Source of the DNA: Eledone cirrhosa
Lineage: Eukaryota
Direction of reading: 5' to 3'
DNA length: 64,000 nucleotides
Assembly (NCBI GenBank): GCA_964016885.1
Contig: OZ024745.1
Coordinates: 42,842,001-42,906,000 of the forward strand
In this document: positions 2,978 through 63,333 of the stretch, in pieces
How the letters are laid out: each line of letters begins with the position of its first letter
Position numbering within the stretch: the stretch's first letter is position 1
The notes under the pieces: model-generated
Told to the model about the DNA's origin: nothing
The model's database searches: none
What the model saw: the letters and a program-made list of their open reading frames with translations, nothing else
Translations under genes and position numbers: made by a program

Positions 2978-2985
2978 AGGAAATA

Positions 2986-3209
2986 GGGTGGTGGGTTTGT
3001 AGTATTGGGAGAGCGTCGGACAACATGCTTGGCTGCATAGAGTTATGGCCCTTTACGTTCTGAGTTCAAATCCCACCGAGGTTAGCTTTGCTTTTCATCC
3101 TTACGGGGTCGATAAAATAAAGTACCAGTAACGCACTGGGATCGATTTAATCGACTTACCCCTCCTCCAAAAGTGTTGGCCTTGTGCCTAAATCAGAATC
3201 CATTATTAT
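2986..3209 (+). mobile_element. SINE family A, near full length (core resembles the Meta-domain type of SINE; family name from memory, unverified)
   Basis: tRNA-like head with B-box gagttcaaatccc (3062-3074), conserved core, 3' end ccttgtgcctaaatcagaatcc-attattat. More than 15 related copies in the window. Confidence 0.88.
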
Positions 3210-6900: not shown

Positions 6901-7169
6901 GTGACGGTGAAGGAAAACAATGGTAATCATAGTGATTATTGTTATTGTTGTTTGGCGACACATCAGTATCAGTCGTGTTCCAACAAACAATAGGTCGAAG
7001 GAAGGATTGGCTGCTCTTTCTAGCGGCTTTCAGTAATCACATTGAGGCGCCGTCGCTGAATCGTGAGGATAGTAATCATAGCGGCGGTGTGGTGGGGAGT
7101 TGGCGCTGCTGATGGGGGTGTAATCAAGATAATAGTGGTGATGGTGATGGTGTATGCAGCTGGTGAGGT

Positions 7170-10100
7170 TGTAGTGGTGGTAGTATAGTGGTAGTGACGG
7201 TGGTGGGTGTAGTAGTGGTAGTGACGGTGGTGGGTGTAGTAGTGGTAGTGGTGGTGGTGGGTGTAGTAGTGGTAGTGACGGTGGTGGGTGTAGTAGTGGT
7301 AGTGATGGTGGTGGGTGTAGTAGGGGTAGTGACGGTGGTGGGTGTAGTAGTGGTAGTGACGGTGGTGGGTGTAGTAGGGGTAGTGACGGTGGTGGGTGTA
7401 GTAGTGGTAGTGACGGTGGTGGGTGTAGTAGTGGTAGTGATGGTGTTGGGTGTAGTAGTGGTAGTGATAGTGGTGGGTGTAGTAGTGGTAGTGACGGTGG
7501 TGGGTGTAGTAGGGGTAGTGACGGTGGTGGGTGTAGTAGTGGTAGTGACGGTGGTGGGTGTAGTAGTGGTAGTGATGGTGGTGGGTGTAGTAGTGGTAGT
7601 GACGGTGGTGGGTGTAGTAGGGGTAGTGACGGTGGTGGGTGTAGTAGTGGTAGTGACGGTGGTGGGTGTAGTAGGGGTAGTGACGGTGGTGGGTGTAGTA
7701 GTGGTAGTGACGGTGGTGGGTGTAGTAGTGGTAGTGACGGTGGTGGGTGTAGTAGTGGTAGTGATAGTGGTGGGTGTAGTAGTGGTAGTGACGGTGGTGG
7801 GTGTAGTAGGGGTAGTGACGGTGGTGGGTGTAGTAGTGGTAGTGACGGTGGTGGGTGTAGTAGTGGTAGTGATGGTGGTGGGTGTAGTAGTGGTAGTGAC
7901 GGTGGTGGGTGTAGTAGTGGTAGTGACGGTGGTGGGTGTAGTAGTGGTAGTGATGGTGGTGGGTGTAGTAGGGGTAGTGACGGTGGTGGGTGTAGTAGTG
8001 GTAGTGACGGTGGTGGGTGTAGTAGTGGTAGTGATAGTGGTGGGTGTAATAGTGGTAGTGACGGTGGTGGGTGTAGTAGTGGTAGTGATGGTGGTGGGTG
8101 TAGTAGTGGTAGTGACGGTGGTGGGTGTAGTAGTGGTAGTGATGGTGGTGGGTGTAGTAGAGGTAGTGATGGTGGTGGGTGTAGTAGTGGTAGTGATGGT
8201 GGTGGGTGTAGTAGTGGTAGTGATGGTGGTGGGTGTAGTAGTGGTAGTGATGGTGGTGGGTGTAGTAGTGGTAGTGATGGTGGTGGGTGTATAGTGGTAG
8301 TGATGGTGGTGGGTGTAGTAGTGGTAGTGATGGTGGTGGGTGTAGTAGTGGTAGTGATGGTGGTGGGTGTATAGTGGTAGTGATGGTGGTGGGTGTATAG
8401 TGGTAGTGATAGTGGTGGGTGTAGTAGTGGTAGTGATGGTGGTGGGTGTAGTAGTGGTAGTGATGGTGGTGGGTGTATAGTGATAGTGGTGGGTGTAGTA
8501 GTGGTAGTGATGGTGGTGGGTGTAGTAGTGGTAGTGGTGGTGGTGGGTGTAGTAGAGGTAGTGATGGTGGTGGGTGTAGTAGTGGTAGTGATGGTGGTGG
8601 GTGTAGTAGTGGTAGTGACAGTGGTGGGTGTAGTAGTGGTAGTGACGGTGGTGGGTGTAGTAGTGGTAGTGGTGGTGGTGGGTGTAGTAGTGGTAGTGAT
8701 AGTGGTGGGTGTAGTAGTGGTAGTGATGGTGGTGGGTGTAGTAGTGGTAGTGACGGTGGTGGGTGTAGTAGGGGTAGTGATAGTGGTGGGTGTAGTAGTG
8801 GTAGTGATAGTGGTGGGTGTAGTAGTGGTAGTGATGGTGGTGGGTGTAGTAGTGGTAGTGATGGTGGTGGGTGTAGTAGTGGTAGTGACGGTGGTGGGTG
8901 TAGTAGGGGTAGTGATAGTGGTGGGTGTAGTAGTGGTAGTGATAGTGGTGGGTGTAGTAGTGGTAGTGACGGTGGTGGGTGTAGTAGAGGTAGTGACGGT
9001 GGTGGGTGTAGTAGTGGTAGTGATGGTGGTGGGTGTAGTAGTGGTAGTGACAGTGGTGGGTGTAGTAGTGGTAGTGATGGTGGTGGGTGTAGTAGTGGTA
9101 GTGATAGTGGTGGGTGTAGTAGTGGTAGTGGTGGTGGTGGGTGTAGCAGTGGTAGTGATGGTGGTAGGTGTAGTAGAGGTAGTGATGGTGGTGGGTGTAG
9201 TAGGGGTAGTGATGGTGGTGGGTGTAGCAGTGGTAGTGATGGTGGTGGGTGTAGTAGTGGTAGTGATGGTGGTGGGTGTAGTAGTGGTAGTGACGGTGGT
9301 GGGTGTAGTAGTGGTAGTGACGGTGGTGGGTGTAGTAGTGGTAGTGACGGTGGTGGGTGTAGTAGTGGTAGTGATGGTGGTGGGTGTAGTAGTGGTAGTG
9401 ATGGTGGTGGGTGTAGTAGTGGTAGTGACAGTGGTAGGTGTAGTAGTGGTAGTGACGGTGGTGGGTGTAGTAGTGGTAGTGATGGTGGTGGGTGTAGTAG
9501 TGGTAGTGACGGTGGTGGGTGTAGTAGTGGTAGTGACGGTGGTGGGTGTAGTAGTGGTAGTGATAGTGGTGGGTGTAGTAGGGGTAGTGATGGTGGTGGG
9601 TGTAGTAGTGGTAGTGATAGTGGTGGGTGTAGTAGTGGTTGTGATAGTGGTGGGTGTAGTAGTGGTAGTGATAGTGGTGGGTGTAGTAGTGGTAGTGATA
9701 GTGGTGGGTGTAGTAGTGGTAGTGACGGTGGTGGGTGTAGTAGAGGTAGTGACGGTGGTGGGTGTAGTAGGGGTAGTGATAGTGGTGGGTGTAGTAGTAG
9801 TAGTGACGGTGGTGGGTGTAGTAGTGGTAGTGATGGTGGTGGGTGTAGTAGTGGTAGTGACGTGGTGGGTGTAGTAGGGGTAGTGATAGTGGTGGGTGTA
9901 GTAGTGGTAGTGACGTGGTGGGTGTAGTAGGGGTAGTGATAGTGGTGGGTGTAGTAGGAGTAGTGATAGTGGTGGGTGTAGTAGTGGTAGTGACGGTGGT
10001 GGGTGTAGTAGGGGTAGTGATAGTGGTGGGTGTAGTAGTGGTAGTGACGTGGTGGGTGTAGTAGGGGTAGTGATAGTGGTGGGTGTAGTAGTGGTAGTGA

Positions 10101-12050
10101 CGGTGGTGGGTGTAGTAGAGGTAGTGACGGTGGTGGGTGTAGTAGTGGTAGAGATGGTGGTGGGTGTAGTAGTGGTAGTGATGGTGGTGGGTGTAGCAGT
10201 GGTAGTATTAGTGGTGGGTGTAGTAGAGGTAGTGACAGTGGTGGGTGTAGCAGTGGTAGTGATGGTGGTGGGTGTAGTAGAGGTAGTGATGGTGGTGGGT
10301 GTAGTAGTGGTACTGACGGTGGTGGGTGTAGTAGTGGTAGTGATGGTGGTGGGTGTAGTAGTGGTAGTGACAGTGGTGGGTGTAGTAGTGGTAGTGATGG
10401 TGGTGGGTGTAGTAGTGGTAGTGATGGTGGTGGGTGTAGTAGAGGTAGTGATGGTGGTGGGTGTAGTAGTGGTAGTGTTGGTGGTGGGTGTAGTAGTGGT
10501 AGTGATAGTGGTGGGTGTAGTAGTGGTAGTGATGGTGGTGGGTGTAGTAGTGGTAGTGACAGTGGTGGGTGTAGTGGTGGTAGTGATGGTGGTGGGTGTA
10601 GTAGTGGTAGTGACAGTGGTGGGTGTAGTACTGGTAGTGACGGTGGTGGGTGTAGTAGTGGTAGTGATGGTGGTGGGTGTAGTAGTGGTAGTGACAGTGG
10701 TGGGTGTAGTAGTGGTAGTGATGGTGGTGGGTGTAGTAGTGGTAGTGACGGTGGTGGGTGTAGTAGTGGTAGTGATGGTGGTGTGTGTAGTAGTGGTAGT
10801 GACAGTGGTGGGTGTAGTAGTGGTAGTGACGGTGGTGGGTGTAGTAGTGGTAGTGATGGTGGTGGGTGTAGTAGTGGTAGTGATGGTGGTGGGTGTAGTA
10901 GAGGTAGTGATGGTGGTGGGTGTAGTAGTGGTAGTGATGGTGGTGGGTGTAGTAGTGGTAGTGATCGTGGTGGGTGTAGTAGTGGTAGTGACGGTGGTGG
11001 GTGTAGTAGTGGTAGTGATAGTGGTGGGTGTAGTAGAGGTAGTGATGGTGGTGGGTGCAGTAGTGGTAGTGACGGTGGTGGGTGTAGTAGTGGTAGTGAT
11101 CGTGGTGGGTGTAGTAGTGGTAGTGATAGTGGTGGGTGTAGTAGTGGTAGTGACGGTGGTGGGTGTAGTAGTGGTAGGGATGGTGGTGGGTGTAGCAGTG
11201 GTAGTGATGGTGGTGGGTGTAGTAGAGGTAGTGATGGTGGTGGGTGTAGTAGAGGTAGTGATAGTGGTGGGTGTAGTAGTGGTAGTGATGGTGGTGGGTG
11301 TAGTAGTGGTAGTGGTGGTGGTGGGTGTAGTAGTGGTAGTGACAGTGGTGGGTGTAGTAGTGGTAGTGATAGTGGTGGGTGTAGTAGTGGTAGTGATAGT
11401 GGTGGGTGTAGTAGGGGTAGTGATAGTGGTGGGTGTAGTAGTGGTAGTGATGGTGGTGGGTGTAGTAGTGGTAGTGGTGGTGGTGGGTGTAGTAGTGGTA
11501 GTGACAGTGGTGGGTGTAGTAGTGGTAGTGATAGTGGTGGGTGTAGTAGTGGTAGTGATAGTGGTGGGTGTAGTAGGGGTAGTGATAGTGGTTGGTGTAG
11601 TAGTGGTAGTGACGGTGGTGGGTGTAGTAGTGGTAGTGATGGTGGTGGGTGTAGTAGTGGTAGTGATGGTGGTGGGTGTAGTAGTGGTAGTGATGGCGGT
11701 GGGTGTAGTAGAGGTAGTGATGGTGGTGGGTGTAGTAGTGGTAGTGACAGTGGTGGGTGTAGTAGTGGTAGTGATGGTGGTGGGTGTAGTAGTGGTAGTG
11801 ATAGTGGTGGGTGTAGTAGTGGTAGTGACAGTGGTGGGTGTAGTAGTGGTAGTGATGGTGGTGGGTGTAGTAGTGGTAGTGATGGTGGTGGGTGTAGTAG
11901 AGGTAGTGATGGTGGTGGGTGTAGCAGTGGTAGTGATAGTGGTGGGTGTAGTAGTGGTAGTGATGGTGGTGGGTGTAGTAGTGGTAGTGACGGTGGTGGG
12001 TGTAGTAGTGGTAGTGATGGTGGTGGGTGTAGTAGTGGTAGTGACGGTGA
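7170..12050. repeat. ~4.9-kb minisatellite, 27-bp unit GTAGTAGTGGTAGTGA(C/T)GGTGGTGGGT
   Basis: Directly visible tandem array of about 180 units. Minus frame reads TTTTPTT(I/V)T. Confidence 0.97.
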
Positions 12051-12309
12051 TGGATGGTGGAATCATGGTAGTGATGGTGGGGTTTGGTGGTGGTAAGTAG
12101 AAGTGGCAGTGACTGGATTAAGGGGTGTGCTCCGTAGTAGCAGTGGTGATAGTGGGAGTAATATAGAGGAGCAATATTTTATGATCGTAACACGTGCTGA
12201 CATGTAGAAGAGAGCGATAGTAATTTATGTGGAGAGGGAGAGGGATGACAGGGAAAATATGTATGTGCTTGTGTGTATCATTATATATAATGTATATACA
12301 TACATATAT

Positions 12310-24195: not shown

Positions 24196-24500
24196 GTTTC
24201 TTCTCTTGGAACAAGGCCAGAAATTACTCAGTACATTACTGGTACTTTATTTTATCGACCCCGTAAGGATGAAAGGCAAAGTTAACCTCGACGGGATTTG
24301 AACTCAGACCGTAATAGGACATAACTATGCTAGAAAGCATGGCGTCAAACCCTTTACCGATACTGCTAATATATAATAATAATAATAATTGTTTCTACTT
24401 TTGGCACAAGGCCAGCAATTACCCAGTACATTACTGGTACTTTATTTTATCGACCCCGTAAGGATGAAAGGGAAAGTTGACCTCGGCGGGATTTGAACTC

Positions 24501-24501
<1 letters not shown>
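24192..24501 (-). mobile_element. Two tandem SINE family A copies (24192-24368, 24375-24501)
   Basis: Core and B-box in both. Second copy has (AAT)n on both sides. Confidence 0.88.
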
Positions 24502-24551
<50 letters not shown>

Positions 24552-24825
24552 TAAAGTGGGAGGTAAAAAGGATTTGGAACTGCCATGAAGTCAAAGTGGT
24601 CCCGATTGTCATAGGCGCACTAGGTACTATCTCAAAATGTTTCCAGGGATGGTTAAAGAAAATTGGCCCCGCCACGCTTTTTGGAACGCTTCAAAAGGCA
24701 TGCTTGCTGGGAACGGCAAGAACCCTCCGATACGTCCTGAATATCTGAGGCTGCAGGTAGTGGCTTGATATTCATTGCAACAAACTTTCCAGTTAACTAA
24801 CATCAATGACTGAGACTCAAAGAAC
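24552..24825 (+). mobile_element. 5'-truncated R4/Dong-clade non-LTR retrotransposon (copy 1)
   Basis: LKWEVKRIW...VPIVIGALGTI...LQKACLLGTARTLRYVLNI*, short 3' UTR, (AAT)n on both sides. Confidence 0.85.
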
Positions 24826-24875
<50 letters not shown>

Positions 24876-24876
<1 letters not shown>

Positions 24877-25749
24877 CAAATACGTGACTGATAGTAGGGA
24901 GCCAATACTCAGAATTGTACTGAAGGAGAGGACAATAGACCAGCGGATGTTCAAGGAGGAAATAACAACAAGGAGAAAGAGAAACCTTCATGAAAAATCC
25001 CTTCATAGTACCTTCTTTGAGAAAACTGAATTCAGAGATCCACAGACATGGAACTGGTTGAAAAGAGGAGACCTTAAAAAGGCTACAGAAGGAATGCTAA
25101 TGGCTACGCAAGAGCGGGCCCTCAAAACGAAGTGGCTGAAACACCATATTTACAAGGAGGAGGCTAGCCCACTGTGTAGGATCTGTGGAGAGAGGGGAGA
25201 CTGTGGCTCACATTGTATCCGAGTGTAAACACCTAACCCAGACTAACTATAAAGGCTGGAGACATGATGTGATGGGCAGGGTGATCCACTGGCACCTATG
25301 CAAAGTAAACAATTTACCACATTCTGAGAAGTGGTATGAGCATAAGCCAGAGTCGGTGATAGAAAACGATCAGATGAAGGTGCTGTGGGATTTTAGGATA
25401 CAGACGGACAAGAAACTGGAACACAATAGACCTGACCTGGTGGTTTGGGACAAGGAAAAAAGATCGTGCCTGATTGTGGATGTAGCCTGCCCATTCGACA
25501 CAAGAGTGCAAGAGAAGGAGAGGGAGAAAATTAACCGATACCAGGACTTAAAGTGGGAGGTAAAAAGGATTTGGAACTGCCGTGAAGTCAAAGTGGTCCC
25601 TATTGTCATAGGCGCACTAGGTACTATCTGAAAGAGTTTCCAAGAACACTCTCATACGTCCTAAATATCTGAGGCTGCTGGTAGTGGCTTGATATTCATT
25701 TCAACAAACTTTCCAGTTAAATAACATCAATGACTGAGACTCAAAGAAC
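24876..25749 (+). mobile_element. 5'-truncated R4/Dong-clade element (copy 2): CCHC motif + restriction-like endonuclease, disrupted
   Basis: CRICGE/ETVAHIVSEC, RHD, LWDFRIQTD, RPDLVV..IVDVACPFD..EKINRYQDL. Frameshift near 25190, stop and deletion near 25630. Same 3' end as copy 1. Confidence 0.9.
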
Positions 25750-25808
<59 letters not shown>

Positions 25809-26069
25809 TTTCTTTATTAACCACAAGGGTTTACATAAAGTAGACATTAAGGACAGTGCAGGACAATGCAGGACAGTACAAATGGGCATTTCTGCGTGTA
25901 AAAAAAACAAAAACAGAGGATGTAACAAAAATAACAATGAAAATAACAATGAAAAATTCCCCAATAGGGGGGAGACTTCGGAGGGACATTTGTGGAGAAA
26001 GCCCAGTAAAAAGCCACAATGACCCTGACCACCAAGGCAAGTGCCCTCTCCCAGTTTTCCACCTTTAGT

Positions 26070-29000
26070 TTACAGATATATACTCAGAGTCGGCCCATTC
26101 ACTCGGGCCATTCTTGCTTCTCTCACCCATCTTTCAACAAAATGCTGGGAAGAGAGCACTTCCTTCTCTACTCTGATTTTCCTTTTCAAATGAAATTTGA
26201 AAAAGTCAATCAGAGCATCACCGAAGAGGTAAGTGCTCGTCTTCAGCCCTTTCAAACGTGTCCACCATACTATCTCTTTCGCCATGGCCACCAGACAGAT
26301 AAAAACTGCCTGCCCTTCCCGGCTAAAGGAGGAGGGCGGGGCAATCCTCACGATAGACTCAGATGATAGCTGGATCCGTCCTAAACGCGACAGCAGGTGT
26401 TCGACATAAACCCACAAGTCAGCAATTTTCGGACACTGGACGAGTGCGTGCAGGACGGTTTCGTCGCCCTGCGCGCATCTCGGACATGCCCGGCTGACGG
26501 CACCTCCATGCCTGTAGAGTTTATCCCGAACTGGCAAGGCTCCTCGGTAGCACTGCCAGGCCAGAGATTTCTGGAAGTTGTCCATAGGCCCTGGCCCGAA
26601 AGTTCTTCCGAAGAGATTGGCTAGTTGATTTTCGTCGACGCCTAGAGTTTCCCCAAGTACGTCGTCGCTCTTCCCCTCCACTAATCCTCTATAGAACGCT
26701 GAGGTGGAGTTTCCACCGATCACATTGCCCGATTGGTCGAGGGCTGTGAGCGCCTGAAGACATTCCAGTCTCCAGGCGCTCCCTCTCGGTCTTCGCTTGA
26801 CCCAGGACTGCAGCTCCGTCAAGGAAACGAGCTGGGGAAAAACGCGTCTAGCAAACGGCGACCACACCTGATCACCGTCGAGGAAGAGGTGGAGATGTCG
26901 TAGCCTGAGCGCGTGCCTGCGCATCATCAGCCACGGCATGCCCAGCCCTCCACGTAGCGGGTGTTGACAACAGATGGACCGCCTGACCATCGGAGCACGT
27001 CCCATCCACAAAAAGCGAAAGAGCAAACGCTCCAGCGCAGTCAGGCGAGGCTTAGGACAAGGTACGACGGTTAGGCGGTAGCAGATGACAGACGCGATGT
27101 ACGCGTTAGCCACCTCCGCTCGACCTTTCAGGGATAGCTTCCTCTCCGCCCATTTCTGGGTGAGAGAAGCCACCCTGCTCGTCACCTCGTCCCAGTTTTT
27201 GTCCGTCTGGAGGTCCGGACCGAACCAGACCCCTAGCAATTTAACCGGTCCGTCCGTCCAGCGCCCGACGACGCTGTTGGACGGCATGGACCTGCCTCTC
27301 CAGGTGCCGAGCTGCAGGCCCACTGACTTTTCCTGGTTGATCATTGCTCCTGTCACCGCTTCGTATTCTCTTAGTGTAGTGCCGATCGCCTCGATGTGTT
27401 TGGCGTTCGACACCACTACGGTGACATCGTCCGCATATGCTGACACGGATCTTCCGCATCCTAGTTCGCGCGGGACTCCCCTCAACGTCTCCAGTTTGTG
27501 CAGTAATGGCTCGAGAGTCAATACGTACAAGAGGGACGAGAGGGGACATCCTTGGCGGACCGAGCGCATGATGTTGAACGGTTCCGACAGGTGACCGTTT
27601 ACTCTCACCACAGAGCAGATGTCGCTGTGCATGGCAGCGATCCAGCCTCTGAAGACGGGCCCAAAGCCAGCCGCCCTCAGGACTGCCGCTAGGTAACGAT
27701 GGTCGACCCTATCGAAAGCTTTCGACTGATCTAAATTGATCAAGGACCCACCCGTGCCAGGTTCCCTAGCTACCCTCTCTACGATGTATCGCATGAGGTG
27801 GAGGTTGTCGTGGATGGATCTGTCGGGAATGGCGCATGTCTGCGCCTCTCCCATCAGACCACCAACGACAAGCGCCAACCTCTTTGCTAGCACCTTGGCC
27901 AAAATCTTAAACTCTGTGTTTAGCAGAGTTATGGGCCGGAAATTGTCTATGTTATCCCCCTTGTTCGGATCCTTTCTCAGCAGTGCCACTGCTCCTCGGC
28001 TCACAGAACTGGGAATTCTCCCGTTCTGTTGCCAGTTGCAGTAGACGTCCGCCAAGAGGCCTCCGAACAAGTCTGGCATCTGTACGTAAAGTTCATAGGG
28101 CAGACCATCCAAACCAGGCGATTTACCCCTTGTGCAGCCAGTCATTGCCTCCCGTACTTCAGCGGCTGTTATCGGCTTTTCGCAACACTTCGCCTCAGTG
28201 GCCGAGAGCCGCGGCAGTCCGTCGAGGTAGACACTAAAGTCCATCCCTCTACCCGGCCCCCCGCTGCCCCCGAACAGCTGAGCGAAGTGTCGCTGAAAAG
28301 CTTCACACATTTGCCCGGGATCGAGTAGCATGCGCCCGTCGTGGTCCACCAAAGACCGGATCGTGGCTTTGTTGCCACGACGCGCCTCCGCCACTCGGGC
28401 CCATTGAACGGCTTTCGTCCCCTCGTGTCTGAGAGCACGCACCCTAGCTCTGACAACGCAGCCTTCGTGCTTTGCATTGAAGAATTGGTCAAGGGCCAAT
28501 TTCGCCGCAAGCACGTCGGTCGCAATGCCTTTGCTAAGCGCCTCGTCTAATTTTCTAACTAGTTCTCCCTCTGCTCTATTTTTCTCTATTGCTAAAGCCT
28601 TACTAAACCTAATCGATTCTATTCTAATCGCTCTTTTCAGAGCAAACCACCACTTGTTGTTGACGATGGCCCCCGTCAACGCCCGCTTAACTAGTTCGCT
28701 AATCCGGTCTCTGTAGGCCTTGCGCGCTGGTAAGGACGCGTTTAGCTTCCAGTAGCCGGGTCCTCGTCTATGAAGCCTATCTAAGTCAAGCACACAGGTC
28801 ACGAATTTGTGGTCCGTGTAGCTGACTATCTTGAATTGTGGACAGCCTATGCTAGACCTATCTATTTCCCTACAAAATACTCTATCTAGATATGATCTGG
28901 ATGACCCTATGCGGTTTGTCCAAGTCCACATTGGCACATTCGGGAAATCCAATCGGTACCTGTCAGACAGTTCAAAACGCCTGAGCAGGTTGGTGAGGCT

Positions 29001-29489
29001 CTTGCACCCTCCACCCCTATCCGCTAATCCCACACAGTCCCAGCGTGCATCTAAGATCCCGTTCCAGTCGCCCACTAACACTAAAGAGCGGGACGTTCCA
29101 AGAAAGGTCTCCAGACGCCGGAAGAAATCAGGCCGCCCTGCTCCTGTCGGGGCATAGACGGCCACTAGCCTGAAAGCTTGCCCGTCTCCGCTGGTCACGT
29201 CCAGCACCACCAGCTTACCCTCTGGGTCCAGGAAGATGGCCCGTATGGCGAGATCCAAACCTCTCCGAAAAAGCACAGCAACTCCTCCACCCGATCCAGG
29301 ACGGCTGGGAGATGCGTACACATCGTAGCCGCCGAAGATCGGTACGAAGGCCCGTGCTTCGGAGATTCTGGTCTCGCTGATGGCCACTACATCTATGTTT
29401 AGTGACCTGAGGTCGTTGAGCAGGTGACCCTGCTTCCATGACGACCCCAAGCCACGCGCATTTATGCTGCCTATTCTGAGTGAGGTCAT
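26070..29489 (-). CDS. ORF2: apurinic-like endonuclease + reverse transcriptase + C-terminal zinc-binding motif, 1139 aa
   Basis: APE motifs (SINARGL, ISETR, VYAP, GDWN, YLDRVF, TDH), RT motifs (SPGLDG, FRPITLLN, DQSKAFDRV, RQGCPLS, YADD), CPRC..ETVLHALVQC. Confidence 0.96.
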   Translation of the reverse strand: MTSLRIGSINARGLGSSWKQGHLLNDLRSLNIDVVAISETRISEARAFVPIFGGYDVYASPSRPGSGGGVAVLFRRGLDLAIRAIFLDPEGKLVVLDVTSGDGQAFRLVAVYAPTGAGRPDFFRRLETFLGTSRSLVLVGDWNGILDARWDCVGLADRGGGCKSLTNLLRRFELSDRYRLDFPNVPMWTWTNRIGSSRSYLDRVFCREIDRSSIGCPQFKIVSYTDHKFVTCVLDLDRLHRRGPGYWKLNASLPARKAYRDRISELVKRALTGAIVNNKWWFALKRAIRIESIRFSKALAIEKNRAEGELVRKLDEALSKGIATDVLAAKLALDQFFNAKHEGCVVRARVRALRHEGTKAVQWARVAEARRGNKATIRSLVDHDGRMLLDPGQMCEAFQRHFAQLFGGSGGPGRGMDFSVYLDGLPRLSATEAKCCEKPITAAEVREAMTGCTRGKSPGLDGLPYELYVQMPDLFGGLLADVYCNWQQNGRIPSSVSRGAVALLRKDPNKGDNIDNFRPITLLNTEFKILAKVLAKRLALVVGGLMGEAQTCAIPDRSIHDNLHLMRYIVERVAREPGTGGSLINLDQSKAFDRVDHRYLAAVLRAAGFGPVFRGWIAAMHSDICSVVRVNGHLSEPFNIMRSVRQGCPLSSLLYVLTLEPLLHKLETLRGVPRELGCGRSVSAYADDVTVVVSNAKHIEAIGTTLREYEAVTGAMINQEKSVGLQLGTWRGRSMPSNSVVGRWTDGPVKLLGVWFGPDLQTDKNWDEVTSRVASLTQKWAERKLSLKGRAEVANAYIASVICYRLTVVPCPKPRLTALERLLFRFLWMGRAPMVRRSICCQHPLRGGLGMPWLMMRRHALRLRHLHLFLDGDQVWSPFARRVFPQLVSLTELQSWVKRRPRGSAWRLECLQALTALDQSGNVIGGNSTSAFYRGLVEGKSDDVLGETLGVDENQLANLFGRTFGPGPMDNFQKSLAWQCYRGALPVRDKLYRHGGAVSRACPRCAQGDETVLHALVQCPKIADLWVYVEHLLSRLGRIQLSSESIVRIAPPSSFSREGQAVFICLVAMAKEIVWWTRLKGLKTSTYLFGDALIDFFKFHLKRKIRVEKEVLSSQHFVERWVREARMARVNGPTLSIYL

Positions 29490-29524
29490 GTTTAAAATAG
29501 AGTGGAAAAGATGGGAAAGACCAC

Positions 29525-31620
29525 TTACCGTACTTTTGGTAGAGGAGGGATGGTTTTTACATCCCTTTTCACTTGATCGTCTGGTGAAGGGACCGTTGAA
29601 TCGTCCCTTCGGCTGGTCGTCGGCTCTTCTAAGAGAATGTCTGAGTATACTCTTCGATTGATGGTTCCTCCTAGGTCCCTGAAATCACCAACTGCGTTGG
29701 GGAATTTCGTTTTAATGTTTGTGTATTGTTTCTGTGCTATTTTTAGCAGTCTTATGTTAGTTGGCGTTTTGATTGGTGCTGGTATTATGTAGTCCTGTTG
29801 TGAAATGTCTGTGTTCAATTATGTAAGTCATTAGTTTCTTGTTGTGTGTATTTATTGCCGTGCATTTGTTTTTCTGGGGGTGGGGTGTGGTTCTGCTATT
29901 TTCTTGTCGTTGTTGCTGGGTGTGTGTGTTTTGTTGTTGTGTTTGCGATGTTGGTGCTTGTGGTGGTGGTGTTGAAGGTGTTGTTGGCGGTGGGGTTGTC
30001 GCCGGTGGTGATGGTGGTGCTAGTGTGGGTGGTGATGGTGTTGGTGTTGTTGCTGCTGTGGGTCTCTTTGCAGTAGACTTTACCCTTTTCTCATTTCTTT
30101 CCTCCCTTTTCAAAGGCGACGATGCGCTGCTTCTGCGTTTGTGCCTTCTTGCGACCTTTTGCCATCCCTCTCCCACCTCACACTCCATGTCTGATTCTGT
30201 GAGGTCGGGGAGGGGTACCAGCTCCACTCTTTCACTTGTTGTTGTTGGTGATGTTTGCACTGGAGTCTCTGTTGCAGCTGCATTTGGTATTGCTGTTGTT
30301 GTTGTTAATATTTCCACTGCTGCTGCTGTTTTTGATTTCCGTGGCGTGGGTATGGGTGCCACGGACCTATCGTTCCTGGTTGCCGCTTGTCCTGTTGCTG
30401 GTAGCCGTGGAGCCGGATTCGGAAGGAGGGGGGTTTTCTCCTTTCTCAGGGTCTTCTCGTTGCAGAAGGCCCTGAGGTGAGTCTTCGATCCACAGCGAAA
30501 GCATTTCGGGCGTTTGCCCTCAACACTTATGGGCAGTTGAGTGCCGTTATCGAAGTCTATCACATCCGGGATAGCTTCGATGCACTCCTGGTTGGTTTGG
30601 ATTAGCATCTCAATGGAGGAGCCGACCCAATCTTCTCTTACTTTTTTCTGTACTTGGAGTACAGTTGTTTTGTCCTCGATTCCGATTAGGACAGACGCGG
30701 CCAGCCAAGAAGGGGTCATTCCGGGGGGGGACGTGGGTCAGTTTGACCCTCACAATTTTTTGCCCGCAGTAGGAGGGCACCAACACCATTTCCTCGCTCC
30801 TTAGGGTCACTACTGATTGGGCCTTTGCCTCCTGGGGTGTGGCAAAAAGTACGTCTACGGTGGCATATTTTTTGCCTCGGGTGATGTGCGTTTTCCGCTG
30901 CCACACAGACCCCAAGGCTTTTTGTATTTGGGCCTCTGTGGCTCTTTCCACCCTACGGGATTTTGTACTTACTGTACGGTACGTGACCGTACAGTGCTCT
31001 TGGGTTTTGAAAAATTTTTCCGCTGCCTTGCAGATTGCTCGGTGTCCGTTCTTTGTCACCATCTTCTTCGCTTCCTCTAATTCCTCATTTGTTATGAGGA
31101 TTGTTTCCAAGTTTTTCGCAATACCTGCAAATGAGATTGGTTTTTCTCTGCTGTTGTTGTTGTCGTCAGAGCTGCTGGTACTTTTGTTGTTGCTGCAGGT
31201 ACTACGACTACTGCCTCCGCCGCTGTTGCTGTGGTTGTTGTTGGTGTTGCTGCTGCTAATGCTGTTGTTGTTTATGCTGCTGGTGATGCTGTTGCGGCTG
31301 CTACTGTTGTTTTCATTGTCACTGTTGCTGTTGTTATTACGGCTGCTACTGCTATTATTCCTGACGTCAGACGAATGAACTGGGTTTTCGTATTTCCCGC
31401 ACACCTGTTTCGTCGCTGTCGTCGTCGTCGTAGAGAAACCTTGCACGCTTTGCACGAGACTTTTCTTTTCTTTCGTCACTTGCGAAAGAGAAGGGAGGGA
31501 GAGAGACACATTTAAAGAAGGGAGGGAGAGAGACAATCTTCTCTCTGCTGTAGTGATGATTGAGGAAGAAGAAGACGGAATGAGTGGGAGTGACGTATGA
31601 AATTTCTTTTTCGTAGCCAT
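29525..31620 (-). CDS. ORF1 (gag-like nucleic-acid-binding protein), split by one or two frameshifts
   Basis: ORFs 30610-31620, 29757-30719 and 29525-29818 overlap. CFRCGSKTHLRAFC (CX2CX4HX4C). First shift at the G8 run 30723-30730. Confidence 0.75.
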
Positions 31621-31929
31621 GTTGTTTTTTGTTTAAAATGAAATTTTGGGTACAAAACCCCAATAACTGGTTATTTAACCCCGAAGGGCCAAATAACAGA
31701 CAGAAAGACCCCTCTCACGAGGAGGAGGGTGTCTTTATCAACAATTTGGTTCAAGTTTTAAACAATTTACAATTGTTTTAACGGTTAAAAATTACTATAC
31801 CTTACAGAGCCGAGCCTCCGTCAACCATGGCATTCAATAATAATAATAATAATAATAATAATAACTTTGAAGACTAAAATCCAAAGAGGGCTCGATCAGG
31901 ATAAATAATATATAAGAACCGTAGAGCAA

Positions 31930-48450: not shown

Positions 48451-48802
48451 AAATCAAAGAGCAAAAAAAAAAAATCAATTCGCAAGGGCAATATTTTATG
48501 TCAGAAAATAATTTCAAATTTTCCATTAAAACTTTTATTAACAGCCGATATATTAAAACACATGGGGCCTTAAATATTCAGTGTTTCCAGAAGAACTTTT
48601 CAGTCACCAGGCGAGATAGAATTGAACACAAAGAAATCCTCCCAAGGACCAATACCGCCAACATAGAATCTACACAATACAGGCATCAAGTGTCATGGTT
48701 CAGATATATAGTGTGCATGTCTAAGTGTATCTGCCATGTAGGATAGCTTATGTTCAGCTATACCATGGTCGTCGTAAGTCCACTGCCTTACACCATAATA
48801 AT

Positions 48803-48969
48803 TGTTTCTACTTTTTGCCCAGTGCATTACTGGTACTTTATTTTATCGACCCCGTAAGGATGAAAGGCAAAGTTAACATCGGCAGGATTTGAACTCAGAA
48901 TGGCAAGGGCCGTAACTCTATGCGTCAAAGCATGGTGTCCGACCCTCTACCGATACTGCCAATCCTCCA
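48803..48969 (-). mobile_element. SINE family A with 18-bp target-site duplication
   Basis: gccttacaccataataat at 48785-48802 and 48970-48987. Confidence 0.9.
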
Positions 48970-49014
48970 GCCTTACACCATAATAATGTTTCTAACATAG
49001 ACAAGAGTAAGAAG

Positions 49015-49425
49015 CTTGGAAGAATTGTATCGACCTCAGTCTAAGACTGGTACTTTACTTTATCGACTCGGGAAGGATGTATGTTGACTTCGGCGGAATT
49101 TGAACTCAGAACATAAACAGCGAGAGCAAAGTCACTTTGTTCCACATTTGAACCGTTTCTTGCCATTATTATTTGTTTTTTTTTTGTTCTGGTTCTTCGC
49201 GTTCAAAATCCCGCCGGGGTCAACTTTGCTTTTCATCCTTCTGGAGTCGATATAATCGACTCTCCCCTCTTCCCTCAAATTGTTGGCCTTGTGCTCTTGC
49301 TAGAAAAAAATATTATTATCATCATTAACCTTAAAATATAGTCCCAGTAACGCACTGGGGTCGATTTAATCGACTTTTTCGTCCAAATTGTTAGCCTTGT
49401 GCCTAAATCAGAAAGCCAATATTAA
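49015..49425. mobile_element. Cluster of three SINE family A fragments in both orientations
   Basis: Cores at ~49045-49110 (-) and ~49200-49320 (+), tail at ~49340-49425 (+). Confidence 0.75.
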
Positions 49426-51720: not shown

Positions 51721-51921
51721 TCGTTCACTCTCTCACTCTCACCTTCTTTCACGTTCTCTATCTATCTATCTAGTCAATCTTCATCTTTCTCCATTCTGTC
51801 TCCATTCTGTTTCCCTTGTATTGGTTAGAGTTCTTTGTTTCGTATATTAAATAATTTCACCTTTACCCTGTTTTTTTTCTGTGTTTTTACCCAAATTTCC
51901 CGTTTCCTTGTATATCGAACT

Positions 51922-54900
51922 TTATCATCGTCATCATCATCTTCAACATCATCATCATCAACAACAACATCATCTTCAGCATCATCTTCATCTTCAACAT
52001 CATCTTCTACATCATCATCTTCAACATCATCATTATCAACAACATCATCATCATCATCATCATCATCAGCGTCATCATCAACATCATCATCAACTTCATC
52101 ATCCACAAGATTATCATCATCATCAAGGTCATCATCATCACCACCAGAAGCAATCACCATTATTACAATCACCATCATTACAATCACCATCATTACAACC
52201 ACCATCAATACAATCACCATCATTACAACCACCATCATTACAACCACCATCATTACAATCACCATCATTACAATCACCATCAATACAACCTCCATCAATA
52301 CAATCACCATCATTACAACCACCATCATTACAATCACCATCATTACAATCACCATCATTACAACCACCATCAATACAATCACCATCAATACAATCACCAT
52401 CATTACAATCACCATCATTACAATCACCATCATTACAATCACCATCAATGCAACCTCCATCAATACAATCACCATCATTACAACCACCATCATTACAACC
52501 ACCATCATTACAATCACCATCATTACAATCACCATCATTACAATCACCATCATTACAATCACCATCATTACAATCACCATCAATACAACCTCCATCAATA
52601 CAATCACCATCATTACAACCACCATCATTACAATCACCATCAATACAATCACCATCATTACAATCACCATCATTACAATCACCATCATTACAACCACCAT
52701 CATTACAATCACCATCATTACAATCACCATCATTACAATCACCATCATTACAACCACCATCAATACAACCACCATCAATACAACCACCATCATTACAATC
52801 ACCATCATTATAATCACCATCATTACAACCACCATCATTACAATCACCATCAATACAATCACCATCATTACAATCACCATCATTACAACCACCATCATTA
52901 CAACCACCATCATTACAATCACCATCAATACAACCACCATCAATACAATCACCATCATTACAATCACCATCATTACAATCACCATCATTACAACCACCAT
53001 CATTACAACCACCATCATTACAATCACCATCAATACAACCACCATCAATACAATCACCATCAATACAATCACCATCATTACAATCACCATCATTACAATC
53101 ACCATCATTACAACCACCATCATTACAATCACCATCATTACAATCACCATCATTACAACCACCATCAATACAACCACCATCATTACAATCACCATCAATA
53201 CAACCACCATCAATACAATCACCATCATTACAATCACCATCATTACAACCACCATCATTACAACCACCATCATTACAACCACCATCATTACAACCACCAT
53301 CAATACAATCACCATCATTACAACAACCATCAATACAACCACCATCATTACAATCACCATCAATACAACCACCATCATTACAATCACCATCAATACAATC
53401 ACCATCAATACAATCACCATCATTACAATCACCATCATTACAACCACCATCATTACAATCACCATCAATACAACCACCATCAATACAATCACCATCATTA
53501 CAATCACCATCATTACAACCACCATCATTACAACCACCATCATTACAACCACCATCATTACAACCACCATCATTACAACCACCATCAATACAATCACCAT
53601 CATTACAACCACCATCATTACAATCACCATCATTACAACCACCATCATTACAACCACCATCATTACAATCACCATCATTACAACCACCATCAATACAACC
53701 ACCATCATTACAACCACCATCATTACAATCACCATCAATACAACCACCATCATTACAATCACCATCAATACAATCACCATCATTACAATCACCATCATTA
53801 CAACCACCATCATTACAACCACCATCATTACAACCACCATCATTACAATCACCATCAATACAATCACCATCATTATAATCACCATCATTACAATCACCAT
53901 CATTACAATCACTATCATTACAATCACCATCATTACAATCACCATCATTACAATCACCATCATTACAATCACCATCAATACAATCACCATCATTACAATC
54001 ACCATCATTACAACCACCATCATTACAATCACCATCATTACAATCACCATCAATACAACCACCATCATTACAACCACCATCATTACAACCACCATCATTA
54101 CAATCACCATCATTACAACCACCATCATTACAATCACCATCAATACAATCACCATCATTACAATCACCATCAATACAATCACCATCATTACAATCACCAT
54201 CATTACAACCACCATCAATACAATCACCATCATTACAATCACCATCATTACAACCACCATCATTACAACCACCATCATTACAATCACCATCAATACAACC
54301 ACCATCATTACAACCACCATCATTACAATCGCCATCATTACAATCACTATCATTACAACCACCATCATTACAACCACCATCATTACAATCACCATCATTA
54401 CAACCACAATCATTACAACCACCATCATTACAATCATCATTACAATCACCATCATTACAATTACCATCATTACAATTACCATCATTACAATCACCATCAT
54501 TACAACCACCATCATTACAATCACCATCATTACAATCATCATTACAATTACCATCATTACAATCACCATCATTACAATCACCATCATTACAATCACCATC
54601 ATTACAATCATCATTACAATCACCATCATTACAATCATCATTACAATCACCATCATTACAATCACCATCATTACAATCACCATCATTACAATCACCATCA
54701 TTACAATCATCATTACAATCACCATCATTACAATCATCATTACAATCACCATCATTACAATCATCATTACAATCACCATCATTACAATCACCATCATTAC
54801 AACCACCATCATTACAATCACCATCATTACAATCATCATTACAATTACCATCATTACAATCACCATCATTACAATCACCATCATTACAATCACCATCATT

Positions 54901-56455
54901 ACAATCATCATTACAATCACCATCATTACAATCACCATCATTACAATCATCATTACAATTACCATCATTACAATTACCATCATTACAATCACCATCATTA
55001 CAATCACCATCATTACAATCACCATCATTACAATCATCATTACAATCACCATCATTACAATCACCATCATTACAATCATCATTACAACCACCATCATTAC
55101 AATCACCATCAATACAACCACCATCATTACAACCACCATCATTACAACCACCATCATTACAACCACCATCATTACAATCACTATCATTACAACCACCATC
55201 ATTACAACCACCATCATTACAATCACCATCATTACAATCATCATTACAACTACCATCATTACAATCACCATCATTACAATCACCATCATTACAATCACCA
55301 TCATTACAATCATCATTACAATCACCATCATTACAATCATCATTACAATCACCATCATTACAATCATCATTACGATCACCATCATTACAATCACCATCAT
55401 TACAACCACCATCATTACAATCACCATCATTACAATCATCATTACAATTACCATCATTACAATCACCATCATTACAATCACCATCATTACAATCACCATC
55501 ATTACAATCATCATTACAATCACCATCATTACAATCACCATCATTACAATCATCATTACAACCACCATCATTACAATCACCATCAATACAACCACCATCA
55601 TTACAACCACCATCATTACAACCACCATCATTACAATCACTATCATTACAACCACCATCATTACAACCACCATCATTACAATCACCATCATTACAATTAC
55701 CATCATTACAATTACCATCATTACAACCACCATCATTACAATCACCATCATTACAATCACTATCATTACAACCACCATCATTACAACCACCATCATTACA
55801 ATCACCATCATTACAATTACCATCATTACAACCACCATCATTACAACCACCATCATTACAATCATCATTACAATCACCATCATTACAACCACCATCATTA
55901 CAACCACCATCATTACAATTACCATCATTACAATCACCATCATTACAACCACCATCATTACAACCACCATCATTACAATTACCATCATTACAACCACCAT
56001 CATTACAATTACCATCATTACAACCACCATCATTACAATCACTATCATTACAACCACCATCATTACAACCACCATCATTACAATCACCATCATTACAACC
56101 ACCATCATTACAATTACCATCATTACAATGACCATCATTACAATTACCATCATTACAACCACCATCATTACAATCACTATCATTACAACCACCATCATTA
56201 CAACCACCATCATTACAATCACCATCATTACAATCACCATCATTACAACCACCATCATTACAATCACCATCATTACAATCACCATCATTACAATCACCAT
56301 CATTACAATCACCATCATTACAACCACCATCATTACAACCACCATCATTACAATTACCATCATTACAATCACCATCATTACAACCACCATCATTACAACC
56401 ACCATCATTAATCACCATCATTACAACCACCATCATTATAATCACCATCATTACA
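51922..56455. repeat. ~4.5-kb array: degenerate (TCA)n followed by a 15-bp unit ACAA(T/C)CACCATCA(T/A)T, with 12-bp variants after ~54430
   Basis: Directly visible. Confidence 0.97.
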
Positions 56456-56803
56456 TATAGTATATGTATGAGTGAATATATATGTATACATATATATAAG
56501 AGTAAATATATATATATATATACTTATAGTATATATATGAGTGAATATATATGTATACATATAGTATATCCTCATCAGATAAAATATATAAATTGATGTA
56601 TGACATACCTCAACTGTGCTGATGGTTCAATTCCAGTCTTGGCATATAGTATATGTATATATGAGTGAATATATATATATACATATAGTACATATTGAAT
56701 ATGTACTATATGTATATATTTAAATCAGTTATAAACTTTTAAGCTTGTTGGAATCCACACAAATTATATATAACTTCTGCATATGTACATATAGTATATA
56801 TTT

Positions 56804-57380
56804 CTAGGGCGGGTAAAATTCCCGAGATCCATGGACGAGTTCTCTCCAACGGTCTCTGTCCCTCATTATCGCTGCCATGTCCTGCGTCTCCAACAGACCA
56901 GTGTCTGTCCTTAGGGCATCAACATACGTTAACTTTGGTCTTCCCCTTCCAGTGTGTCCATGTAGGGGCTCCCACAGGAGCACTGAGTGCAATGTCAACT
57001 CTGGATGTCGGTGAGCATGTCCAGCCAACCTCAGTCTCCTCTGTGTCACTTTTGAGCTGACTTTTGGGAGGCTTCCGTACAGCTCTGAGTTTTTCATCCT
57101 CAGTGTATACTGATTAATATTCAGAGCCATCCTCAGCATTCTCGTGTAGCACCCATCCACCATCTGAGTGAGTTTCTTGGTCAGTGTCCAAGTCTCAGAC
57201 ACGTACAGCAGCACAGACTCTACTGCAGCAATGAAGAGGCGGATTTTCAGGTCTTTACGAAGGTCCGACTTCCACACGATCTGAAGCTGTGGCACGCCCT
57301 CAGGCTTTGCTCTTCCTCTCAACCACATCATCTTCCGTATTCCCAATCTTTGCTCCCAAATACAGGAAGTCCTCAACCAA
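56804..57380 (-). mobile_element. 5'-truncated RTE-clade LINE (3' end of ORF)
   Basis: [50 protein letters not shown]. Confidence 0.85.
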
Positions 57381-57453
57381 TACTATATGAATGTATGAGT
57401 GAATATATATATATATCATCATCATCACCGTTTAAAGTCTATCTTCCACGCTA

Positions 57454-61350: not shown

Positions 61351-61670
61351 TTTATTTAAATATGATAAAATTATAAGGGTCTAGATCGATATCCAGTGAT
61401 TTCGATCTTGTTTTTTACAATTTGCTCAACAAATTCATTTGGAACATACGCAGAGGAGTAATTGTAATACAACATCCCAGCCAGAGACCTAAAGCTATGA
61501 AAACAATGTAATTATTATATTGACGGATTAACATATAAAAAACGTTAAAGTACTCAGAATTTCATCAATTGAAAGAGCCAGTATCCTCCTACTTTAGCAC
61601 ACAAACATCCTCCGGGCTACAAGTATTCACATCTAAGCTGGTATATATATATAAATATATATATATATAT

Positions 61671-63235
61671 CATCATCATCATTTTACGTCCGCTTTTCCC
61701 TGCTTGCAAGGGTTGGAATGGTCCTATTCAGCACAGCATCTCTCCACTTGTCACGGTCCTTCGTCATCTCCTCCGTGAGTTTCAGCGATCTGAGGTCTGC
61801 TCTCACCACCTCCGTCCATGTTTTTCGTGGTCTACCTCTACTGCGTTTTCCTTCTACTGGGATTTCTTGGCATTTCTTTACCCAGCGGTCATCCTCCATG
61901 CGCATCACATGTCCATACCATCTCAGCCTTCTCTCCTGCACACCACAACTTATCCCTCTTATATCCAGTTTTTTTCTCAACTCGTTTATGCTTGTTCACG
62001 CACATTAACATTGCACATCCAACGGACCATACTTGCTTCATTTCTCTCCAGCCGTCGCATATCCTCTGCAGTTGCTGCCCATGTCTCACTACCATGCAAC
62101 ATCGCGCATCTCACACAGGCATCATATAACCGTCCTTTCGTACGCAGGAAGAAATCCTTCTTTGTCAACAGAGGAAGCAGCTCCCTAAACTTCTTCCAAC
62201 CCGTCCTTATTCTAGATACTATGGCCTCGGAACACCCATGCTTATCTGATCACCTAGGTACCGGAAGCTACCAACCCCTTCTATAGAACCCATCTGCATT
62301 GAAAAGATGTGTCTATCACTGCGATTACTACTGCCAATTTTCCCTGTACATCTACTGCATACGTAGTTTTCACTACCTGTTAGTTTGCATGCTATCCCAC
62401 TACATCTCTTGTGTGCCCAAGATCTGCATTGCGTACATGTTATGGAATTTATGCCAGTTCCTTTCCTACATATTGAACATGGCCATTTCCCTGATGGAAT
62501 CGGAGTATTGTCCTCTCTTCTACTTATCAATACTTTTGTCTTAGTTATGTTCACTCTCAGTCCTCTTTATTTCAACTGCCGTTTTCTTTGCCAGAATTTA
62601 TTCTCTAGCTCCTCTACTGATTCTGCTATAAGAACCAGATCATCAGCATAGAGAAGTTCCCATGGGCATCCAGTCTTAAACTCCTCTGTTATGGCTTGGA
62701 GGACTATAATGAACAAGAGTGGGCTGAGAACCGAACCCTGATGTACACCTACTTGTATCTGGAATTATTCACGAAACTCCATTCCTACTCTCACTTTACT
62801 AACAGCACCCCTGTACATAGCTTGCACTGTCCTCACAAGCCATTCCTCTACACCTAGTTTCCTTAGGGACCACCAGATGACAGATCAGAGTACCCTATCA
62901 AAGGACTTCTCTAGGTCAACAAAAGCTAAGTATAGTGCTAAGTATATTCTTCTCTAAGAACCTCTCTTGTAGTTGCCTCACTAAGAAGAGGGCATCTGTT
63001 GTACTTTTCCGGGGCACAAAACCAAACTGCATCTCATCTAGTTTGACCCTTTCTCTAATCAGTTGCGCTAATATCCTTTCTGCCACTTTCATAACCTGAT
63101 CCATCAGCTTTATGCTCCTATAATTGCTCCTCTCCAGAGCATCCCCTTTACCTTTGTAGCAATTTATGAGAATAGTGCTGCACCAGTCTTTGGGTATGAC
63201 ACCACCATATATAGCTTGATTGATGATGCGTGCAA

Positions 63236-63237
<2 letters not shown>
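61671..63237 (-). mobile_element. 5'-truncated, frameshifted RTE-clade LINE
   Basis: YKGKGDALERSNYRSIKL, QFGFVP..STTDA, GVHQGSVLSPLLF, LLYADDL, LHGSETW, RRLRWYGHV, RGRPRKTW, (GAT)n tail. Confidence 0.92.
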
Positions 63238-63282
<45 letters not shown>

Positions 63283-63333
63283 GGTTTAGGCACAAGGCCA
63301 ACAATTTCAGGGGAGAGGAAAGTCGATTTGTAT

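Follow-up and report, generated by a model that had tools for sequence, protein, structure and literature searches.

The abundant SINE of this octopod-like genome (3.0 Gb) is likely copied by the ORF2 protein (ORF2p) of L1/Tx1-like LINEs that insert into (ATT)n, its RNA being selected by a 3'-terminal hairpin and primed on the target sequence ATTAT. We give this reading as a whole a probability of about 0.72. Mobilisation of the SINE by Tx1-like elements is very probable, and, if it is granted, recognition through the hairpin is probable as well. The Tx1-like partner is assigned because two independent signatures agree, namely the shared 3' end and the same ATTAT insertion site. The SINE is among the most abundant repeats of the genome, and the analysis thereby names its likely engine. 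The window, that is, the whole analysed stretch of 64,000 nucleotides, contains both partners, and its elements are collected in Table 1.

The SINE is a dispersed, non-coding element of ~200-230 bp, with a long and a short type and with 5'-truncated copies. In 800 kb of DNA sampled at even spacing it takes up 3%, and genome-wide the short type by itself accounts for 106,210 exact 32-base ends (reversed control, 0). The copy starting at 2985 has a B box at 3064; the A-box pattern used gave no match in this copy, and ARAGORN and Rfam found no tRNA in the SINE. Its junction lies 22 nt after the closing C of the hairpin, and no duplication was recognisable at the flanks of this older copy. At locus L060 four short SINE 3' halves form a tandem array, each with the same tail and a duplication-like sequence. 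We take the SINE to resemble the octopus OK family and the Meta domain. The octopus tRNA-derived SINEs OK, OR1 and OR2 were reportedly described by Ohshima and Okada in 1994.

The LINE of the window has the architecture of an ORF1 plus an ORF2 with apurinic-type endonuclease, reverse transcriptase and C-terminal zinc motif. Among solved structures its ORF2 is closest to human L1 ORF2p (E 6e-52), with R2 proteins at 9e-22 or weaker, and a search with the reverse transcriptase region gave a protein of Argonauta hians (73%) as the best named match, which points to an octopod host. The label Tx1 did not occur among the ORF2 matches in this search, in a cluster look-up or in a whole-ORF2 homolog search (three unnamed matches), and we infer the clade name. 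Target-specific or microsatellite insertion is typical of Tx1 elements according to passages of PMC4494074.

The LINE subfamily of the window is young: there are 925 candidates in the genome, and the 40 that were scored are near-identical. All 30 retrieved copies share one 3' end followed by (ATT)n, and none of the 30 carries poly(A) there. Among 20 loci taken whole, every full-length copy (17 of 17) has (ATT)n also at the 5' side, as does one of the three truncated copies at its 5' end. Since (ATT)n stands on both sides of full-length copies, this LINE is a microsatellite-targeting element. Tx1-like copies are often inserted in the tails of other Tx1-like copies, of SINEs or of Dong-like elements of opposite polarity. 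A sister Tx1-like lineage, D, is inserted in (ATCT)n at both ends and has the same 3' motif; at its loci L098, L104, L138, L325, L363 and L373 the target has been switched and the tail hairpin kept.

Table 1. Elements of the window and their coordinates
Feature	Positions	Strand
Two SINE copies: 2593-2791 long type, 2408-2540 short type	2408-2791	-
SINE copy immediately 5' of the copy at 2985, which adjoins its tail	2801-2976	+
Long-type SINE: tRNA-like head, B box 3064-3072, central body, 3' terminal signal	2985-3201	+
SINE terminal signal: predicted hairpin GGC-[CTTGT]-GCC (3178-3188), 6-nt linker, AGAA-type end	3178-3201	+
ATTATTAT, target-type sequence past the junction of the SINE at 2985	3202-3209	+
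Short-type SINE, 5'-truncated, flanked by ATT runs on both sides	24390-24501	-
Dong/R4-like 3' fragment ending in (AAT)n; polarity opposite to the LINE, which lies in its tail	24850-25749	+
(ATT)n run at the 3' side of the LINE, made up of target and any added repeat	25750-25806	-
Full-length Tx1-like LINE (L1 superfamily), 6,029 bp, young subfamily	25807-31835	-
LINE terminal signal: predicted hairpin AACC-[CTTGT]-GGTT (loop 25823-25827) inside an extended stem; AATAAA 25813-25818	25807-25847	-
Intact ORF2: endonuclease, reverse transcriptase, zf-RVT	26070-29489	-
ORF1, two frames in the window copy, single frame in relatives L311 and L312	29757-31620	-
5' UTR hairpin GGGT-[TTTGT]-ACCC, ~30 nt upstream of the ORF1 start	31648-31660	-
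(ATT)n run 5' of the LINE	31836-31864	-
SINE (48803-48970) between perfect 17-bp duplications, each starting ATTAT; terminal hairpin deleted	48786-48987	-
Two degraded SINE copies with tails at 49287 and 49395	49187-49424	+

All five SINE and LINE tail strings quoted in the original prediction were found in their places, and the spaced 3' motif which it proposed for both elements was borne out by counting. The pattern CCTTRTG-N8-AGAA has 12 matches in the window with at most one mismatch against 2.1 expected, and 0 of 100 shuffles reached as many; 11 of these matches are SINE-like or due to chance, and one is the constant LINE end (25810-25828). Exact Tx1-type ends number 19,994 genome-wide (reversed control, 0). 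Further LINE families were found by mining ORF2 C-termini (44,774 zf-RVT candidates, of which 150 were scored and 30 retrieved), and Tx1-like families that are 50-100% identical in this part of ORF2 have the same terminal motif below diverged upstream UTRs. The motif is therefore conserved among Tx1 copies, as had been supposed. In the DNA of one sequencing run no variant above 5% was seen within the terminal motif, which was not counted as evidence.

The shared signal had been described as a spaced primary motif. The common end stands, and a predicted hairpin plus target microhomology is the better description of it. The 7-mer consists of the closing C-G pair and the CTTGT loop of a predicted hairpin of 3-4 bp, and the spacer differs between SINE and LINE because it contains the 3' arm of the stem and, in LINEs only, AATAAA; the SINE linker is free of this hexamer. 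Across Tx1-like families 60-100% alike the predicted hairpin is preserved, with compensatory changes. In 15 chosen ends, anchored on the loop, the three inner stem pairs are standard in 45 of 45 cells and the fourth pair is present in 7 of 15. Double changes were seen at two pairs: family A has A-U in place of the G-C of the others, and the C-G of the LINEs is G-C in the SINE. This suggests covariation amounting to about two independent events, in rows that were chosen and anchored on the loop. The junction follows the closing C after 22 nt in both SINE and LINE, and after 23 in family B.

Of 11 LINE ends that were folded, 10 are predicted to form the hairpin, with pair probabilities of 0.54-0.90 in a context of 20-250 nt. 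Whole-RNA folds of the SINE prefer other pairings; here the median pair probability of the hairpin is 0.02-0.03, and it exceeds 0.5 in 9 of 106 copies. Within the SINE tail, conservation is nevertheless highest in the hairpin and in AGAAA and lowest in the linker, at 0.98 and 0.97 versus 0.89 in the short type and at 0.91 and 0.93 versus 0.72 in the long type.

The insertion signature was evaluated at 259 SINE ends, 91 of which have duplications scoring at least 10, against 3.8 for shuffled pairing. The 73 non-repetitive duplications have a median length of 16 bp, and 65 of them have offset 0 from the junction. The first five bases of the pre-existing (upstream) target copy are exactly ATTAT in 55 of 72 cases and differ from it by at most one mismatch in 69 of 72, the background being 0.3%. 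Because the duplications at the junction start with ATTAT, most SINE copies are without a tail of their own, and the ATT run is chiefly the insertion target rather than a shared element-encoded tail. The ATT tail that SINE and LINE were said to have in common has thus to be reinterpreted: the SINE junction does lie at ATTAT on the same strand and in the same phase as the LINE junction, and this target-site comparison lends independent support to the pairing, but the repeat is mostly target. The polarity of ATT is ruled out as a diagnostic of the partner, since sense-strand (ATT)n ends occur in a CR1-like family as well. Also ruled out is a relaxed, poly(A)-dependent pair of the L1/Alu type, as poly(A) is absent both from the 30 LINE ends retrieved and from the 12 commonest SINE junction hexamers.

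Targeting by the SINE is looser than targeting by the LINE, and the two are not identical. LINE 5' ends lie in long (ATT)n runs, whereas SINEs need bare ATTAT only; 11 of 65 SINEs lie at three or more ATT units, with a background of 530 of 4,792 sites (11%). Longer pairing of the LINE RNA with the target is presumably the reason. Among truncated Tx1 copies 10 of 33 have a duplication against a null of 8.5, which is indistinguishable from the repeat null, and some truncated Tx1-C copies lie at short ATTAT sites (L252, L261). As for the LINE-head patterns, 5 of 37 matches of A5 were not LINE heads, and B5b, which matched unrelated DNA, was left out. Short-type SINE ends followed by ATTAT number 122,531 genome-wide, those with TATCTAT nearby 669, and 91 of 100 listed ends of the latter kind still start with ATTAT. 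The (ATCT)n sister lineage carries almost no SINEs despite the same hairpin.

How do other LINE clades compare as candidate partners? Dong/R4-like, RTE-like, Hero-like, Penelope-like and CR1-like families are present; these clade names we assume from protein motifs. LINE families were sampled rather than catalogued, over ~1.9 Mb of the 3 Gb. Against a junction-anchored profile of the SINE tail, nine Tx1-like ends score 6.9-18.8 bits. For none of the nine do more than 4 of 1,381 ATTATT-anchored nulls (top 0.3%) or more than 47 of 45,821 random nulls score as high. All nine non-Tx1 ends (among them CR1-like, two Dong/R4, three RTE and two Hero-like ends) score below zero, from -6 to -18 bits, and four further endonuclease-bearing families, traced to their ends where these were found, gave no SINE-tail match. 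A longer match in another clade was thus sought and not found among the sampled families. Families C and D outscore family A, that of the window. The match is short, about 22 nt, as the original prediction itself had warned: in unanchored local alignment of the long SINE type with the window family 64 of 200 shuffles were as good, and under unanchored scanning 12-bit profile hits arise in unrelated DNA. In the 800 kb of evenly spaced DNA every L1-like match belongs to the group already sampled; of the Tx1 matches, the four weakest are degraded or of D type. A duplication starting with ATTAT was found in one of 35 CR1-like copies against a null of 0.8. Loci L191-L250 belong to a young CR1-like family with a 945-aa frame, ~0.8% divergence, a stem-loop of its own and an element-encoded (ATT)n tail.

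The relative ages of the elements refine the choice of partner. The LINE subfamily of the window stands at 0-0.5% from its majority sequence, while the older Tx1-like ends A, B and C and the short SINE types, picked by exact tail, all stand at about 2-3%; in this comparison both the Tx1 subfamilies and the SINE types of matching age were selected by exact tails. Unselected SINEs are 6% and 14% from the majority sequence, and 0 of 96 in a random sample are within 2%. SINEs are nested inside Tx1 and CR1-like copies, and Tx1 copies inside SINE tails. Given the equal distance of 2-3% and the mutual nesting, the activities of older Tx1 subfamilies and short SINEs overlap. The main drivers are therefore likely to be older ATT-targeting subfamilies and not the youngest one, which lies in the window and is ruled out as the main driver by its age. 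The proposal that the Tx1 family of the window or a relative mobilises the SINE is supported by tails and targets as far as Tx1-like elements are concerned, and it is the relative, an older sister subfamily, that fits better in age.

The proposed mechanism can be outlined as follows. Pol III would read the SINE through into its own 3' duplication, so that the RNA would have AUUAU after its AGAAAC end and no tail of its own. ORF2p would bind the CUUGU loop on the stem of 3-4 bp, and the sequence of this stem, by analogy with L2 elements, would be free to vary. The endonuclease would nick the ATAAT strand, the AUUAU of the RNA would anneal to the nicked target and prime reverse transcription, and a second nick ~16 bp away would produce the duplication. 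The LINE may retain AATAAA in its linker as a polyadenylation signal, of which the SINE would have no need. More tentatively, and at slightly less than even odds, we may be dealing with an animal lineage of the L1 superfamily that has a stringent two-part RNA address, made up of a CUUGU hairpin placed 16 nt before the end and a target-matching AUUAU. The second part would be taken from the previous insertion site, and the tailless SINE would supply both. If the SINE does need both parts, this would be why the (ATCT)n lineage does not carry it.

An alternative that we consider unlikely is relaxed mobilisation by Tx1-like elements: the target-pairing 3' AUUAU, perhaps with ribosome proximity, would suffice, and the motif would be a relic or a primary signal with another role, for instance in 3' end processing of the LINE beside AATAAA. 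It would agree with the weak SINE hairpin in full folds, with the window SINE at 48786-48987, which has a clean 17-bp duplication although its hairpin is deleted, and with the scarcity of SINEs in the (ATCT)n lineage, where the target repeat alone could explain the choice of partner; SINEU/Tx1-Mar, as presented in sections of PMC4494074, has moreover been published as a Tx1 pair whose tails are not alike. The SINE, however, has no AATAAA, and its subfamilies, although they differ in the linker, retain the loop, the exact 22-nt register and a stem that has been re-paired; loss of the hairpin is rare (2 of 190 SINE ends). Much less probable is that the true partner is a family of the L1 superfamily outside the sample, less strict in its ATTAT target and closer to the SINE in its tail, the sampled families sharing the motif by descent. 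The looser targeting of the SINE and the small share of the zf-RVT candidates that was scored and retrieved leave some room for such a family, while the evenly spaced DNA, whose L1-like matches all belong to the sampled group, and the truncated Tx1-C copies at short ATTAT sites argue against it.

The young CR1-like family, or a Dong/R4 family on the same microsatellite, has been largely refuted as the mobiliser, and its chances are very small, even though the CR1-like family has numerous young copies (0.8%) with (ATT)n at their ends, Dong-like elements occupy the same microsatellite, and CR1 partners are common among mollusc SINEs in the parts of PMC4758252 and PMC4824008 that concern them. 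Their tails have no similarity to that of the SINE (-12 to -18 bits), CR1-like insertions have the ATTAT-starting duplication in the single case given above, and the Dong-like polarity is opposite. Chance or convergence at AT-rich ends is the least credible explanation of the resemblance: shortness of the match and the 12-bit unanchored hits can be cited for it, but the terminal register is exact in every Tx1-like family and coincides with an independent signature of target and duplication. Copying of the SINE by Tx1-like ORF2p with hairpin recognition thus remains the preferred reading.

A look-alike of the SINE tail was found at the other end of the LINE. In an older subfamily of the A lineage (ORF2 92-97% alike) a hairpin in the 5' UTR scores 22.9 bits against the SINE-tail profile, more than every LINE 3' end. 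This motif has 1,147 exact copies genome-wide; all 10 copies checked lie 145-146 nt past the ATT run and head, and nine of them precede an ORF1 match. In other families hairpins with different loops occupy the same place of the 5' UTR. The look-alike may be a captured SINE tail, a second binding site or a chance product on a shared scaffold. The more specific idea, in which this near-perfect copy connects the SINE with the LINE at either end, whether as a second hairpin bound by ORF2p or as a SINE tail captured by the coeval subfamily, seems to us rather improbable. Look-ups for this 5' UTR feature gave nothing relevant. The hairpin is seen at L311:230-270 and also at L312-L315 and L331-L340, and that of the window LINE (31648-31660, minus strand) is a compensated variant. 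Between families whose ORF2 is nearly identical, 5' UTRs have been swapped. A candidate separate SINE family, 'X', was rejected, as 'X' is the Tx1 5' UTR. An element at L316:7500-7945 (minus strand), lying in an ATT run, shares the first ~50 nt of the 'X' 5' UTR, beyond which it consists of unrelated AT-rich sequence and gave no ORF match; possibly it is a non-autonomous derivative.

It remains to compare this pair with known systems. Stringent L1-clade pairs are known from maize, sorghum and Chlamydomonas (sections of PMC3472496). In maize LINE1-1_ZM with ZmSINE2/3 and Chlamydomonas L1-1_CR with SINEX-3_CR, as far as excerpts of PMC3472496 and PMC3747384 describe them, an L1-superfamily LINE is combined with a tRNA-type SINE, and a conserved 3' end, a predicted hairpin, a conserved loop and compensatory stems occur, all as here. 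Those plant and algal pairs share ~50-80 nt, whereas the animal pair shares ~22 nt; the animal host, the lack of a poly(A)/poly(T) tail and the microsatellite target are further differences. Table 1 of PMC3747384 contains no animal tail pair of the L1 or Tx1 clade.

The crocodilian SINEU was assigned to Tx1-Mar by the shared target (Kojima 2015, PMC4494074, in the sections on this pair). As here, the preference of the SINE is weaker than that of the LINE, and tandem insertion, overlapping ages and sequence shared between the SINE and LINE 5' regions occur. SINEU has an snRNA head and a poly(A) tail, and those sections report no similarity to the LINE 3' end; the present SINE, by contrast, has a tRNA-like head, lacks a tail of its own and shares its 3' signal with the LINE, and the target here is a microsatellite. 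Kibi and Koshi are Tx1-type LINEs in simple repeats, as here, with the targets (TC)n and (TTC)n in place of (ATT)n and, in the sister lineage, (ATCT)n, and no SINE partner is mentioned for them in the relevant passages of PMC4494074. The model for the mechanism is provided by UnaL2/UnaSINE and zebrafish ZfL2-1/ZfL2-2, where, according to portions of PMC4176376, the loop is specifically read and the stem is needed but exchangeable. Those elements belong to the L2 clade and have longer stems and an element-encoded repeat tail, and their recognition was shown by assay; here it is predicted only.

On the SINE side, the octopus OK/OR1/OR2 families and MetaSINEs (PMC4824008, in part) have a tRNA-like head, a central domain and a cephalopod host, as here, the likeness being one of description; the partner LINEs of MetaSINEs are stated there as unknown. 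Octopus repeat studies report abundant SINEs and L1-Tx1, with no partner given in the sections concerned (PMC13282606, PMC8967140). Further background on SINEs and LINEs is found in parts of PMC3531059, PMC5786205 and PMC7245038. A published description of this SINE-LINE pair was not found in the open literature; Repbase and the 1994 octopus SINE paper may contain it. A shared-tail SINE partnership for L1/Tx1-like LINEs in animals was not found described there either. If this one is true, animals would join plants and algae in having stringent 3' recognition within the L1 superfamily; this bears on the proposal, made in a section of PMC3472496, that mammalian L1 recognises poly(A) alone because of a derived loss. 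The signal of ~22 nt, with natural ATT and ATCT variants that separate the hairpin from the target, makes the choice of template and the choice of target separately testable.

Several other features of the region deserve mention. In the window (24200-31864) and at loci L062, L068, L073 and L078, (ATT)n/(AAT)n runs serve as landing sites in which Tx1-like elements, Dong-like elements and SINEs have inserted in chains, some of them head-to-tail Tx1 arrays. Degenerate, trinucleotide-based tandem arrays of several kilobases occupy 7020-12178 and 51825-56596 of the window and produce long low-complexity open frames. RTE-like 3' fragments of two families lie at 56804-57382 (minus strand) and 61573-63332.
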